From a phage: a DNA stretch of 64,000 bases. A program made the translations under genes and the position numbers. Every line of letters begins with the position of its first letter. The stretch's first letter is position 1. Below, piece by piece: positions 425 through 47,563 of the stretch. The notes under the pieces were generated by a model. The model was not told where the DNA came from and searched no databases. It was given only the letters and a program-made list of their open reading frames with translations. The DNA is taken from NCBI GenBank assembly GCA_014437165.1, contig GCA_014437165.1_4090.3; one strand, 5' to 3'.

Positions 425-449
425 GGGTTGACTTCGGTCAGCCTTTTTT
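425..449 (+). terminator. rho-independent terminator with embedded -35 hexamer (PeSL-like cassette)
   Basis: GGGTTGAC-TTCG-GTCAGCC hairpin then T6; TTGACT inside the stem, TATGAT ~18 nt downstream. Confidence 0.7.
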
Positions 450-485
450 GTTATGATGTTGATATTAACTACAGAGGATAAAGTA

Positions 486-1127
486 ATGACTAAGCAAGAA
501 ATATTCAAAACTTTAATTGACATTTTGCGTCCATCAAAAACTCGTTGTGCGATGGAGTTTGATATTCCTTATGCTGAACGCGTAATCTTTCCACAAGTTA
601 AAGCTGCTGGACTTACTTTGCTTGGAATGGGGATGTACTCTGTAGTAGTTGAACATAAAAACTATCCTGGACGAGCATTTAAAGTAACCACTTCACGCTG
701 GGATGGTTTTCGTGCTTATGCAAAGTACTGCATTGAAAACGCAGGAACCAAGTTTCTTCCAGTGATCTACAGTGCCAACGAACAAGGAAACTTTGGATGG
801 TATGAGATGGACAAGTACTATCCTATAATTAAACAAAAAAATAATTATGATGACTTTGTTAGTACTAAAATTGGAGATTTGTATTCGTATGCACATGCTG
901 GTCAGTACGCAACTTCAGTGAATGATATGCGTGGAAATTCTGAAGAGATTGCTATTGCAACGGTCGCTGCTAACATCATGAAAGAGTTTCACGGGCGTTT
1001 TGTACCAGACATTCATTCAAGTAATGTAATGATGGATAAAGATGGGAATGTATTCATTACTGATCCTCTTTCGTGTGATGTGCGTAGAGAAATACCAATT
1101 ACTGAAGAAGATCCAGTTTTTTATTGA
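486..1127 (+). CDS. protein kinase-like fold protein (atypical)
   Basis: RBS AGAGGA then ATG 486; motifs GMGMYSVVV (Gly loop-like), AFKV, DIHSSNVM (catalytic-loop-like D.H..N), ITDP. Confidence 0.45.
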   Translation: MTKQEIFKTLIDILRPSKTRCAMEFDIPYAERVIFPQVKAAGLTLLGMGMYSVVVEHKNYPGRAFKVTTSRWDGFRAYAKYCIENAGTKFLPVIYSANEQGNFGWYEMDKYYPIIKQKNNYDDFVSTKIGDLYSYAHAGQYATSVNDMRGNSEEIAIATVAANIMKEFHGRFVPDIHSSNVMMDKDGNVFITDPLSCDVRREIPITEEDPVFY

Positions 1128-1188
1128 CAGAACTGATGTTCTGATGTATTCTTAATAAACCATAAAAATTGCGGTAAAGGATAAAATC

Positions 1189-1470
1189 ATGCGTTCATTT
1201 GAAAACTTAATAGGTAAGCATCTTTTATCTGAAATTGATGCAGACGTTAAAGAATTATCCAAATCAAAAAGTTACATTCATTTGGATGAACTGTTTGTTA
1301 AGTACGGTGAGATTGGTTTTAAATCATTATTTGTTTTTACTATGAAAGTACATAGTTTAAAGTACTTCGATTTGAGTGCTAAAGATGGTGAACCGAATCT
1401 ATATTACATGTATTACCTTAAGAACAAAGATGAAGCTAATACATTACTCTCTGAATATATATTGGGGTAA
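1189..1470 (+). CDS. hypothetical protein
   Basis: RBS AAAGGA upstream of ATG; 93-aa ORF. Confidence 0.5.
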   Translation: MRSFENLIGKHLLSEIDADVKELSKSKSYIHLDELFVKYGEIGFKSLFVFTMKVHSLKYFDLSAKDGEPNLYYMYYLKNKDEANTLLSEYILG

Positions 1471-1472
1471 AA

Positions 1473-1811
1473 ATGGAACAATATTTTGAATTAATAAACA
1501 AAGTATCATTTTATGTAGTATCTTTGGTTTGGGTGTATTATATGTTTTGCTACATTATTGCATTCTTCCGATACACTACTTTATATGAACGTATCTACTA
1601 TGATGCCCCAATTTCATTCTTGATGTTTTGTGCATGTACGTGGGGAATATTAGAAGTACTGATATGTGGGTATAGTACTGATGAATTAAATCTGGTATCG
1701 GTCTTGACTGGGTTTTCATTTGTTGTTATGATAGCTGCCGTTCCAGTATGGTTGTTCTTTGTACTAGTTCATCGCATTGATATATGGCGTTCTAATATCC
1801 CTGAAAAGTAA
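1473..1811 (+). CDS. small multi-pass membrane protein (paralog family A, 1 of 3)
   Basis: Mostly hydrophobic; C-terminal tail HRIDIWRSNIPEK shared in pattern with next two ORFs. Confidence 0.55.
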   Translation: MEQYFELINKVSFYVVSLVWVYYMFCYIIAFFRYTTLYERIYYDAPISFLMFCACTWGILEVLICGYSTDELNLVSVLTGFSFVVMIAAVPVWLFFVLVHRIDIWRSNIPEK

Positions 1812-1820
1812 GGATTGGTA

Positions 1821-2162
1821 ATGATTTATTACACTAACATGTTTGCCTATGCTGTTGCTTGCATTTACATTGTTTACTTCTTATTCGGTGGAGTACTGTG
1901 CTTCTTTAAGTACAAAACATTGTTCAACCGAATGTACCCAAATCATCCAATTGTAGTTGTACTTTTGATTCTTTCAGTTTCTCAAATAATCGTTGAAACT
2001 ACAATGGGTATCAGTAGTGTACATTATAGTTTTGGCACTATAGTAATTATTACTATGCTTATTGCATACATTTTAGTACTTGGATATGGTATCTTTGGTA
2101 ATATTGGTATGAAAATGTATCATCGAATTAAAACATTACGTGATAATCTACCGGAGCGTTGA
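1821..2162 (+). CDS. small multi-pass membrane protein (paralog family A, 2 of 3)
   Basis: ATG 1821 after AAGGA (track start 1815 is TTG); tail HRIKTLRDNLPER. Confidence 0.55.
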   Translation: MIYYTNMFAYAVACIYIVYFLFGGVLCFFKYKTLFNRMYPNHPIVVVLLILSVSQIIVETTMGISSVHYSFGTIVIITMLIAYILVLGYGIFGNIGMKMYHRIKTLRDNLPER

Positions 2163-2163
2163 T

Positions 2164-2508
2164 ATGTATAATTTGAACCTAATCTCATATATTATAACAA
2201 CACTGTTTACATTCTATGCCTTTGTTGGTATAATCCTACTGTACTTTAAATTTTATAAAGTGTTTAACCGTTTCTATCCTTCAATGGAGAATGAGTTTTT
2301 CTTTGTGTTGTACGTATGTTACACATTAATGGCTACATGTTTCACTGTAGCCGATGGTGTCATCGGCATTAAAACTGCTTCCCCAAATGGTAGTACGCTG
2401 GTTGCATTTATTCTTACTGGATTCCTTGCAACTTATATTGCCTTCATTACAACATGGTCAGTGGTTGAATTTCTCTTGCGACTACGAAAGAATATGCCGA
2501 ATCGATAG
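2164..2508 (+). CDS. small multi-pass membrane protein (paralog family A, 3 of 3)
   Basis: ATG 2164 immediately after the previous stop; tail LRLRKNMPNR. Confidence 0.55.
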   Translation: MYNLNLISYIITTLFTFYAFVGIILLYFKFYKVFNRFYPSMENEFFFVLYVCYTLMATCFTVADGVIGIKTASPNGSTLVAFILTGFLATYIAFITTWSVVEFLLRLRKNMPNR

Positions 2509-2517
2509 GAGACATAT

Positions 2518-2772
2518 ATGTTTGCGTTGCGTAATAAAAACACTAAAGAATTATTATGTATTGATACCGTATGGGATTGTGCGGGATCAACTACAGTTCT
2601 TGAAGAAGGAACTGGATATTGCGTGTTTGTTGTACATGATAGGAATGAACTCGAATTATTACTTGCTGAGTTCAATGCTGGTGGTAATCCTAACTGTACT
2701 GAATACCCTGAGATTATCAATCCAGCACCACCAGGCTCTTATGAAATTCTACAACTGTGGGAGTTGAAGTAA
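2518..2772 (+). CDS. hypothetical protein
   Basis: RBS TAGGAGA then ATG 2518; 84 aa. Confidence 0.5.
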   Translation: MFALRNKNTKELLCIDTVWDCAGSTTVLEEGTGYCVFVVHDRNELELLLAEFNAGGNPNCTEYPEIINPAPPGSYEILQLWELK

Positions 2773-46604: not shown

Positions 46605-46653
46605 TAACTAAAACAAAGTATAATGTTTTGCATAGGGGGAGATATCCTCCCCC
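46597..46653 (+). promoter_or_regulatory. promoter + leader-hairpin cassette
   Basis: TTGCAT 46597-46602 (overlaps previous stop), 16 nt, TATAAT 46619-46624; hairpin GGGGGAGA-TAT-CCTCCCCC 46635-46653. Confidence 0.65.
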
Positions 46654-46671
46654 ACTAAAAGGAGTAATAAA

Positions 46672-46896
46672 ATGGCTAACTTTGATGAACTAATGCGGGA
46701 AGTAGCTAACCTGGCAGAAGAGAAGAAATCATTCGATTCTATCTATAACACCGCTCATCGTGATTCAGTACTGGCATGTACTCAGGATCAAAAAGATGAA
46801 CTGATCGCCACCTACCATGAAGCGTGGCAGTACTACCGCCAATGGGAGAAAGAAGAAAGTGAGTCTACCATTGACGGCCTCAATAATCTAATCTAA
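46672..46896 (+). CDS. hypothetical protein
   Basis: RBS AAGGAG; 74 aa. Confidence 0.65.
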   Translation: MANFDELMREVANLAEEKKSFDSIYNTAHRDSVLACTQDQKDELIATYHEAWQYYRQWEKEESESTIDGLNNLI

Positions 46897-46907
46897 AAGT
46901 TTTATTT

Positions 46908-46946
46908 CAGTACTATTGACATAGCTTGATAGTACTGATGTAATAA
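46908..46946 (+). promoter_or_regulatory. promoter embedded in a palindromic operator-like site
   Basis: CAGTACTAT 46908-46916 / ATAGTACTG 46929-46937; TTGACA 46916-46921; -10-like TGTAAT. Confidence 0.55.
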
Positions 46947-46972
46947 CTTTACTAACTACAAGGGGAAACATA

Positions 46973-47230
46973 ATGGAACAGTTCACACAATATCGGGTAA
47001 ATCCTCAAGCTATGGCCTACGTAGAAGACCATAAAACGTTACCAGTACTAACACCAATTAAAGGCCATATCTATCGTGCAATGTCATGGAATACGGCCCA
47101 GGATGGATATACTACCGCTGGCGTGGGTATGTATTGCGGGAATGGTGAATGGTTTGATCCAAATAATCCGGTAGCCATTGACAGTACTGAAAAAATGAAA
47201 TGGGCCGACTACATCGAAGATATTTCATAA
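46973..47230 (+). CDS. hypothetical protein
   Basis: RBS AAGGGGAAA; 85 aa. Confidence 0.6.
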   Translation: MEQFTQYRVNPQAMAYVEDHKTLPVLTPIKGHIYRAMSWNTAQDGYTTAGVGMYCGNGEWFDPNNPVAIDSTEKMKWADYIEDIS

Positions 47231-47236
47231 AACTAT

Positions 47237-47297
47237 TTGACAGTACTAACCAGTAATGTATAATGTTTTACATAGAGCGGGGGAATAGTTCTCCCGC
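47237..47297 (+). promoter_or_regulatory. promoter + leader-hairpin cassette
   Basis: TTGACA 47237-47242, 16 nt, TATAAT 47259-47264; hairpin GCGGGGGAA-TAG-TTCTCCCGC 47277-47297. Confidence 0.7.
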
Positions 47298-47319
47298 CAA
47301 TAGTTTGGAGTAAAACATT

Positions 47320-47520
47320 ATGTCTATCGCTATCGCCCTGGTTGAAGTACTGAAAGAAGCTAAAGCCAACCAGATCGACGTAAAGATCCAGGAACTACAA
47401 AACGGCTTAATCGGCTGTACTTGTACCGCTGGTGGAGCGGCAGACTATCGAGAACACGAATCACTCGAATCACTGGTTCGGTATCTTACCATGATCGTTG
47501 ATGATTGGAGAATCATCTAA
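47320..47520 (+). CDS. hypothetical protein
   Basis: RBS TGGAG; 66 aa. Confidence 0.6.
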   Translation: MSIAIALVEVLKEAKANQIDVKIQELQNGLIGCTCTAGGAADYREHESLESLVRYLTMIVDDWRII

Positions 47521-47538
47521 CAAAAAAGAATAAAAAAA

Positions 47539-47563
47539 GGAGTTGACTTCGGTCCGCTCCTTT
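47539..47563 (+). terminator. terminator-like hairpin / degenerate PeSL-like cassette
   Basis: GGAGTTGAC-TTCG-GTCCGCTCC (one mismatch) + TTT. Confidence 0.5.

Follow-up and report, generated by a model that had tools for sequence, protein, structure and literature searches.

The 64,000-nucleotide (nt) stretch of phage DNA analyzed here (contig GCA_014437165.1_4090.3 of GenBank assembly GCA_014437165.1; hereafter, the window, meaning the stretch at its full length) carries eight short intergenic cassettes in which a GC-rich hairpin followed by a run of T holds a promoter-like -35 hexamer within its 5' arm and is followed by a -10-like hexamer. Over its first 12 kb, the window shares 99.4% identity with Escherichia phages vB_EcoM_G17 and Sharanji (genus Asteriusvirus), which identifies the source as a jumbo coliphage of the 121Q/PBECO4/RaK2-like kind, not a T4-type phage (Straboviridae). 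The segment from 36 to 50 kb is a mosaic among relatives, and no database record spans as much as 80% of it; a scan of the window for tRNA and tmRNA genes found none. In the GenBank record of G17, the four hairpins from 424 to 7615 are carried as ARNold terminators and no promoters are annotated; the UE-S1 record, similarly, annotates terminators only.

Anatomy of the eight cassettes

The cassettes fall into two classes. Class A consists of those with hairpins at 424, 4919, 6201 and 7615, which make up a 74-nt direct-repeat family (D18). Each fills the entire intergenic gap of 65-69 nt with the same succession of elements, namely, the stop codon of the upstream open reading frame (ORF), an A-run, the hairpin, five or six T, TGn-TATAAT, a leader of about 22 nt with a Shine-Dalgarno (SD) sequence, and an ATG located 28-29 nt past the -10. 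The genes that follow encode a protein kinase, a denV-like glycosylase, and two hypothetical proteins. Class B consists of the cassettes at 37636, 41324, 44787 and 47539, with a T-run of three or four, where the cassette is followed by a conserved RNA element of about 50 nt and, about 90 nt on, by a second, ordinary promoter with a hairpin in the 5' untranslated region (UTR), SD and ATG. All four copies of class A close with an SD and ATG, and no copy of class B does; in class B, the next ORF lies 190-280 nt downstream, past the RNA motif and the second promoter. The copies, together with one degraded half-cassette, are as follows.

417..490, plus strand: class A cassette 1; upstream stop at 416; hairpin 424-444; -35 at 428-433; T6; TGn and TATGAT at 452-457; SD; ATG at 486 (protein kinase gene)
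4912..4985, plus strand: class A cassette 2; hairpin 4919-4939; -35 at 4923-4928; T5; TGC and TATAAT at 4947-4952; SD; ATG at 4981 (denV-like glycosylase)
5499..5520, plus strand: degraded half-cassette AAAGGGTTGACTTCGGTTAC; left arm and loop retained; right arm, T-tract and -10 gone
6194..6267, plus strand: class A cassette 3; hairpin 6201-6221; -35 at 6205-6210; TATAAT at 6229-6234; ATG at 6261; left edge of a 1,414-bp unit
7608..7681, plus strand: class A cassette 4; hairpin 7615-7635; -35 at 7619-7624; TATAAT at 7643-7648; ATG at 7677; right edge of the 1,414-bp unit
37630..37722, plus strand: class B cassette 1; hairpin 37636-37656; -35 at 37640-37645; TATTAT at 37663-37668; RNA motif 37674-37722; second promoter module 37763-37838
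41318..41405, plus strand: class B cassette 2; hairpin 41324-41345 (UCCG loop, 9 bp); -35 at 41328-41333; TATTAT at 41351-41356; RNA motif 41362-41405; second promoter 41437-41512
44781..44873, plus strand: class B cassette 3; hairpin 44787-44808; -35 at 44791-44796; TATTAT at 44814-44819; RNA motif 44825-44873; second promoter 44904-44979
47533..47620, plus strand: class B cassette 4 (repeat family D15); hairpin 47539-47559 with one internal mismatch; -35 at 47543-47548; TACTAT at 47566-47571; RNA motif 47577-47620; second promoter near 47682-47715

The degenerate pattern GGGWTTGACTYCGGTCARYCC, searched with up to three mismatches, matched the window at seven positions, all on the plus strand (424, 4919, 6201, 7615, 37636, 41324 and 44787), against 0.01 expected from shuffles, and the 13-nt core TTGACTYCGGTCA, with up to one mismatch, matched at ten against 0.05 expected, adding the eighth site (47543), the degraded half-copy (5506) and a chance-like match at 30760 on the minus strand, which was rejected as a cassette because it forms no stem. 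This search and direct reading of the sequence bear out the initial annotation, which had placed eight such cassettes at these sites, with TTGACT inside the stem and a -10 box 17-18 nt further on. TTGACT lies in the 5' arm of all eight hairpins (428, 4923, 6205, 7619, 37640, 41328, 44791 and 47543), and a -10 hexamer follows at a spacer of 18 in class A (TATGAT at 452-457; TATAAT at 4947-4952, 6229-6234 and 7643-7648) and of 17 in class B (TATTAT at 37663-37668, 41351-41356 and 44814-44819; TACTAT at 47566-47571). The last of these hexamers departs from the three variants originally listed (TATAAT, TATTAT or TATGAT), which hold for the other seven copies. The hairpin consensus written at the time is exact at 41324 and 44787, but the other six copies deviate from it by two to four bases, in part with compensation in both arms (GTGG/CCAT at 37636, GGAG/CTCC at 47539), and the T-tract ascribed to all copies amounts to five or six T in the four from 424 to 7615 but to merely three or four in those from 37636 to 47539.

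The stems are GC-rich, 8-9 bp long, and capped by TTCG or TCCG, loops of the UNCG type. Predicted hairpin energies range from -14.4 to -19.5 kcal/mol on the plus strand and from -6.4 to -13.9 kcal/mol on the opposite strand, a loss of 5-9 kcal/mol that arises from the change of a conserved T.G wobble (in GTCAG) into a C.A mismatch; we infer that the G of GTCAG serves to weaken the antisense hairpin and to avoid a TTGAC on the other strand. Between copies, the arms change in a compensating manner (GGG/CCC, GTGG/CCAT, GGGA/TCCC, GGAG/CTCC). In all eight cases, the hairpin starts 6-19 nt 3' of the stop codon of a plus strand ORF, in intergenic DNA among hypothetical, poorly conserved small ORFs of variable regions. 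On the coding strand, the cassettes thus have the form of an intrinsic terminator, that is, a GC hairpin past a stop codon followed by a U-tract (U5-6 in class A, U3-4 in class B). Superimposed on this is the form of a sigma70-like promoter, with AT-rich DNA upstream (the A-run that leads into the stem), TTGACT inside the 5' arm, a spacer of 17-18 nt and a -10 hexamer that, in seven of the eight cassettes, is preceded by an extended -10 element, TGn, which interrupts the T-run one base before the hexamer.

In principle, the inverted repeat, whose centre falls in the -35 region of an early promoter, could be a palindromic DNA operator, bound by a phage or host regulator that shuts early promoters off, with no RNA hairpin involved, and the abundance of another palindrome, CAGTACTG, around promoters makes DNA-binding regulators plausible in this phage. 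We nevertheless regard this explanation as highly improbable. The pairing is strand-asymmetric, with the T.G wobbles on the plus strand only and the weaker fold opposite; the central four nucleotides drift among relatives (TTCG, TACG, TTTG, TCCG, TCAG) while the arms co-vary, as RNA pairing predicts; the T-run always comes after the hairpin, which is placed just past a stop codon; and the element is found in phages of unrelated families and hosts, in which no common regulator is expected.

A standard terminator scan detected none of the eight hairpins, having extended the stems into the flanking A/T runs and left too few T in the tail. Our own scan, which trims the A-T ends of stems, recovers all eight and finds about 20 terminator-like sites on the plus strand of the window, of which eight are of the fused type and the others plain or merely promoter-adjacent. 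Two identical plain terminator hairpins, GCCCACCTTAAACAGTGGGC followed by T6, lie 735 bp apart at 34468-34487 and 35203-35222 and have no embedded -35.

The predicted embedded promoter and likeness to PeSLs

To gauge how consistently the two halves of the cassette go together, the phage contigs of IMG/VR were scanned for the exact 18-mer GGTTGACTTCGGTCAGCC. Among 52 distinct instances, 47 have a -10-like hexamer at a spacer of 17-18, where -10-like means at most two mismatches to TATAAT with A2 and T6 kept, a condition for which about 8% is a rough estimate of the background in AT-rich sequence. The carriers include RaK2-like jumbo phages, T4-like phages (Aeromonas phage 65 and a 247-kb KVP40-like genome), contigs of 109-162 kb, and the putative Brochothrix phage A9. 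Because the correctly spaced -10 is kept in such a large majority of exact-hairpin instances, the promoter half appears to be under selection, and the fact that hairpin and -10 go together in different lineages is the strongest argument that sequence can offer for use of the embedded -35. In the 127,065-bp IMG/VR contig assigned to the putative Brochothrix phage A9, which has a Gram-positive host (loci L037/L043), the same hairpin and T-run are followed by TGTTATTAT and then by an AAGGAGG Shine-Dalgarno sequence.

These data bear directly on a competing explanation, under which the hairpins are purely intrinsic terminators and the TTGAC and TAnnnT are by-products of duplicated AT-rich intergenic sequence that initiate nothing. 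That the G17 and UE-S1 records annotate terminators alone agrees with such a view, as does the occurrence in relatives of the hairpin without a good sigma70 -10 (121Q L006:1700, SP27 L007:1631 and instances in RaK2 L014). It would leave unexplained, however, the retention of the -10 in unrelated phage contigs, the extended -10 TG and the A-rich upstream tract, and the class A ORFs, which follow a strong terminator with no other promoter in the gap, and we deem it very unlikely. Several observations do weigh against promoter use, or against termination, at individual copies. The same hairpin in relatives sometimes precedes a TAAATA-type, late-like sequence in structural-gene regions, and because these instances lack a sigma70 -10, the hairpin evidently can be a plain terminator whose embedded TTGAC is not always used. 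The U-tracts of class B are short enough that termination may be weak; the 18-nt spacer and TTGACT are slightly off consensus; in half of the cassettes, what comes next is not an SD and ATG but a structured RNA leader with a second promoter behind it; and the eight copies are paralogous and so do not amount to eight independent observations within the window. No mapped transcript ends, 5' or 3', of this phage or of any Asteriusvirus turned up in the literature searched. The late-like sites comprise positions 123 and 1700 of the 121Q locus (L006) and 288 and 1631 of the SP27 locus (L007), where the TTGAC hairpin stands before TATAAATA/TAAATA, a late-promoter-like sequence, beside structural genes and just upstream of the homologous start of the window.

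The architecture is that of the promoter early stem-loops (PeSLs) described in the T4-type phages RB49/phi1, PST/T4 and nt-1/KVP40 (Arbiol et al. 2010, PMC2839356; Comeau et al. 2014, PMC4122927). By definition, a PeSL joins a terminating or attenuating stem-loop to an early promoter that is sigma70-like and AT-rich upstream (PMC2839356, PMC4122927), and there are five subclasses by stem-loop position, in one of which the stem-loop overlaps the -35 (PMC2839356). PeSLs lie between ORFans of hyperplastic regions, where they mediate indels, replacements and mini-circles (PMC2839356, PMC4122927), and those of RB49/phi1 act as strong promoters and terminators in lacZ fusions (PMC2839356). The nt-1/KVP40 consensus consists of a stem A3-4G3-loop-C3T3-4 and a promoter TTGYVH-N17-TAWWAT (PMC4122927). 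The cassettes share with PeSLs the sigma70-like -35/-10, the AT-rich upstream tract, the GC stem-loop over the -35, the SD and ATG at the 3' end in class A, the position between small ORFs of variable early regions, the indels and replacements that they bound, and the presence of degraded half-copies, the one at 5499-5520 resembling the "degraded PeSLs" of Comeau et al. (PMC4122927). They differ in that the host genome is an Asteriusvirus and that class B leads to a ~50-nt RNA motif and second promoter in place of SD and ATG. The likeness to PeSLs that the initial annotation had pointed out is thus supported, the fit being to the -35-overlapping subclass of the published definition.

A cassette of Vibrio phage nt-1, AAAAGGGTTGC-TTCG-GCAGCCCTTTTTGCGTATTAT, is near-identical to those of the window, the hairpin of the T4-like Aeromonas phage 65 is identical, close variants are present in Cronobacter phage PBES02 and Vibrio phage D481, and near-identical cassettes also occur in RaK2, GAP32 and CBB. 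A BLAST search with a single 81-nt cassette retrieved 188 phage records, including phages of Vibrio (51), Aeromonas (23), Klebsiella, Cronobacter and Pectobacterium. For Asteriusvirus and RaK2-like phages, the literature searched contains no description of PeSL-type cassettes: none are mentioned in the papers on RaK2, Sharanji and CBB, the last of which reports for the early region only RpoD-like promoters with UP elements, and a full-text search with literal cassette sequences returned unrelated papers only. That the window comes from a genome other than T4-type is a question of the taxonomic scope of PeSLs and leaves the mechanism unaffected.

We consider it likely, therefore, on the sequence evidence, that the cassettes are compact, overlapping units of intrinsic terminator and sigma70 promoter that belong to early, host-takeover regions and represent the PeSL subclass overlapping the -35. 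In the mechanism that we envisage, with termination, initiation and timing deduced from sequence and comparison, RNA polymerase (RNAP) arriving from the upstream ORF would transcribe the 8-9 bp GC stem, the UNCG tetraloop and the U-run, and would terminate at class A, with U5-6, while class B, with U3-4, probably attenuates transcription instead of stopping it. As duplex DNA, the same bases would serve the host sigma70 holoenzyme, which would find an UP-like element in the A-run that precedes the stem, TTGACT in the 5' arm, the spacer in the T-run, and the extended -10 in TG. Transcripts are predicted to start about 7 nt past the -10, near 464, 4959, 6241, 7655, 37675, 41363, 44826 and 47578, those of class A having a leader of about 22 nt with an SD and those of class B carrying the structured RNA motif at the 5' end, followed by the second promoter and the gene. 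The terminator would shield the promoter from occlusion, such that each gene block could form an insulated, independent transcription unit. The distant relative PA5oct depends on host RNAP and has TTGAC/TATAATA promoters (PMC7318152).

Two other arrangements in the window invite comparison. Between ~28200 and 48500, at least 40 ordinary modules, built of AAAAAGTACTTGCA/TTGACA, N16/17, GTATAAT, TTTACAT, a GC hairpin in the 5'-UTR, SD and ATG, precede nearly every small ORF (examples are at 33750-33807, 37773-37830, 42099-42176 and 45219-45296). Like the cassettes, these are repeated intergenic combinations of promoter and stem-loop that bound indels, and their counterpart among PeSLs is the subclass whose stem-loop lies past the -10; unlike the cassettes, they have the hairpin past the start site with no T-run, making it a 5'-UTR structure and not a terminator, and the -35 outside the stem. 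At 60410, a terminator is followed by a TTGACA promoter at 60448, and, as in the cassettes, the upstream terminator would isolate and protect the next promoter, providing insulation against promoter occlusion, but here the two elements are 17 nt apart, with no overlap and no common bases. The palindromic octamer CAGTACTG occurs at 48 sites in the whole window against 0.85 expected (e.g., 3168, 12004, 28302, 33616 and 45233), in promoter spacers, upstream of -35 boxes, in terminator stems and inside ORFs. Elsewhere, the minus strand at ~12400-24200 is occupied by a tandem array of about nine paralogous genes of ~1.2 kb, annotated in relatives as RCC1-like or DNA-condensation proteins and each followed by a GCCAGTACTnnGTACTGGC terminator hairpin, and the plus strand at ~49500-55700 holds a second family, of short tandem paralogs with common conserved blocks of 35-55 nt (repeat families D11, D14 and D20).

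Recombination at the cassettes

Local BLAST alignment of positions 1-12,500 of the window with four relatives (SP27, UE-S1, 121Q and UB) places several of the differences between these genomes at class A cassettes. SP27 aligns to 1-6264 and 7609-12500 with a subject overlap of 73 nt, and UE-S1 does likewise, so that in both a single cassette stands in place of cassette 6201, two ORFs and cassette 7615 of the window, the spacing of the repeats being 1,414 bp. The single SP27 cassette is a chimera, with the left flank and the -10-proximal bases from 6201 and the leader from 7615, which puts the crossover just past the -10. In 121Q and UB, 6485-7612 is replaced by other DNA, with the right breakpoint at cassette 7615; UB has an insertion of ~405 bp at 4905-4914, adjoining an HNH gene; and the homology of UE-S1 starts at 409. 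Of about nine distinct breakpoints, five lie no more than ~10 nt from one of the four class A cassettes (P ~0.02 in a rough binomial estimate, even with breakpoints limited to intergenic DNA). All four relatives have kept the half-cassette at 5499-5520, which lies in the gap separating denV from the next ORF. Class B is also involved: TH47 lacks 47232-47523, with the junction at cassette 47539. Across 26-52 kb, EC22.5-2 and TH47 show many further indels bounded by duplicated ordinary promoter modules (32015/32377, 41903/42099, 44904/46252). Indels and replacements between close relatives are, then, bounded by cassettes of both classes, and because direct repeats of 65-75 bp flank small genes, the cassettes would additionally provide homology for the insertion, deletion and swapping of gene modules.

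A rival reading is that the cassettes persist chiefly as selfish or mobile recombination modules of the PeSL mini-circle type, which move small genes between phages, with regulation secondary. Beyond the bounded indels, the chimeric cassette and the degraded half-copy (at 5502), this could accommodate the presence of near-identical cassettes, inclusive of the 5'-UTR CATCGAAACGA(A/G)A, in Straboviridae, Vequintavirinae, RaK2-like phages and Brochothrix phage A9. Nothing in it is incompatible with the regulatory reading; the constrained design, with the -35, UUCG loop, GC clamp and T-run, would let convergence yield the same 18-mer; and neither mini-circles nor transfer events were observed here. 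We therefore rate it as unlikely as the main cause of their persistence. Still, as a regulatory module, the terminator-promoter cassette may have moved between Straboviridae, Vequintavirinae, RaK2-like phages and a Brochothrix phage.

The class B RNA motif and what the cassettes imply

The element that follows the class B cassettes, CCCAYNGGGTGC, is found at ten sites in the window, on both strands, and follows ordinary promoters as well, in each case at the 5' end of predicted transcripts from strong sigma70-like promoters.

28996-29044, 29211-29259, 31102-31139, 33631-33679, minus strand: RNA motif copies
31053-31088, 37674-37722, 39351-39401, 41362-41405, 44825-44873, 47577-47620, plus strand: RNA motif copies

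The motif is also present in RaK2, K64-1, GAP32 and CBB, where it lies in stretches of the early or terminal-repeat region that carry no annotation. Its first hairpin begins 2-4 nt past the predicted start and combines a 3-5 bp stem of varied sequence with a purine-rich loop of 6-8 nt; 25 of 30 copies form it, and the score averages 5.1 compared to 2.55 ± 0.4 for shuffles. A covariance model built from ten hand-anchored seeds collected 42 copies in the window and the fetched loci of EC22.5-2, TH47, GAP32 and RaK2. In these, all four pairs of helix 1 vary on both sides (46 cells) while 93.5% of the cells are paired, and the covariation score of 0.327, compared with at most 0.05 for slid controls and 0.105 for shuffles, was reached by none of 500 shuffles; the alignment of the 42 copies was fitted to the model, which makes the pair counts lean towards structure, and a model-independent listing agrees with them. 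Helix 2 is invariant, (R)CCC-AYN-GGG(U), within a segment (R)CCC-AYN-GGG(U)GC that is followed by GUAUCUA. MAFFT combined with RNAalifold recovered only this invariant central helix, helix 1 having been missed because its length varies. The Rfam search gave no match in the whole window at the gathering threshold, nor at the motif sites in 28-48.5 kb at an E-value of up to 5. Interpretation of the motif as a small ORF was rejected, since neither a start codon nor a reading frame is conserved and the compensatory changes fall in a stem. At 31053-31139, two copies are convergent (31053 on the plus strand, 31102 on the minus strand), each with its own promoter, and the transcripts would overlap as an antisense pair.

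It is reasonably probable, in our judgment, that the motif represents a genuine new functional family, and we lean, by a smaller degree, to the view that the four class B cassettes are dedicated promoters of an undescribed family of structured RNAs that spans the RaK2-like jumbo phages. In PA5oct, two highly expressed noncoding RNAs map to the terminal repeat (PMC7318152). The motif could yield either abundant early small RNAs or a cis-acting leader. Resemblances to CsrA sites and to boxB have been considered and are not claimed.

The boxB of lambda nut and the put sites of HK022 are RNA elements located just downstream of phage promoters that act on RNAP. The class B leader is similar in that it has, close to the promoter, a small hairpin whose loop is rich in purines, with a conserved segment after it, and in that terminators are dense in the region; it differs in having no sequence match to these elements, and several of its copies are stand-alone or convergent, so the resemblance is a lead and not a claim of membership. 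It is a speculative and quite unlikely idea that the leader modifies RNAP in a put/nut-like manner, such that transcripts begun inside one terminator would read through the next ones by antitermination.

The PeSL is an already known kind of element, of which the Asteriusvirus cassettes appear to be an added example, which carries the concept beyond T4-type phages to the jumbo phages of the RaK2/121Q group. With a single short cassette, a PeSL ends one transcript, starts the next, and acts as a recombination handle for gene modules. The hairpin with the embedded -35 is found again in several phage families, and ~90% of the instances keep the -10. The more original lead seems to be the covarying RNA motif without an Rfam match, located at the 5' ends of predicted early transcripts in the terminal-repeat region; this motif and the spread of the cassette across phage families are the parts that deserve further work. 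The cassettes could, in addition, serve as compact insulator-promoter parts for synthetic biology. For the phages themselves, they would provide transcription-unit boundaries for an early region that is almost unannotated, and may explain the mosaic differences among the Asteriusvirus isolates that are used in phage-therapy studies.

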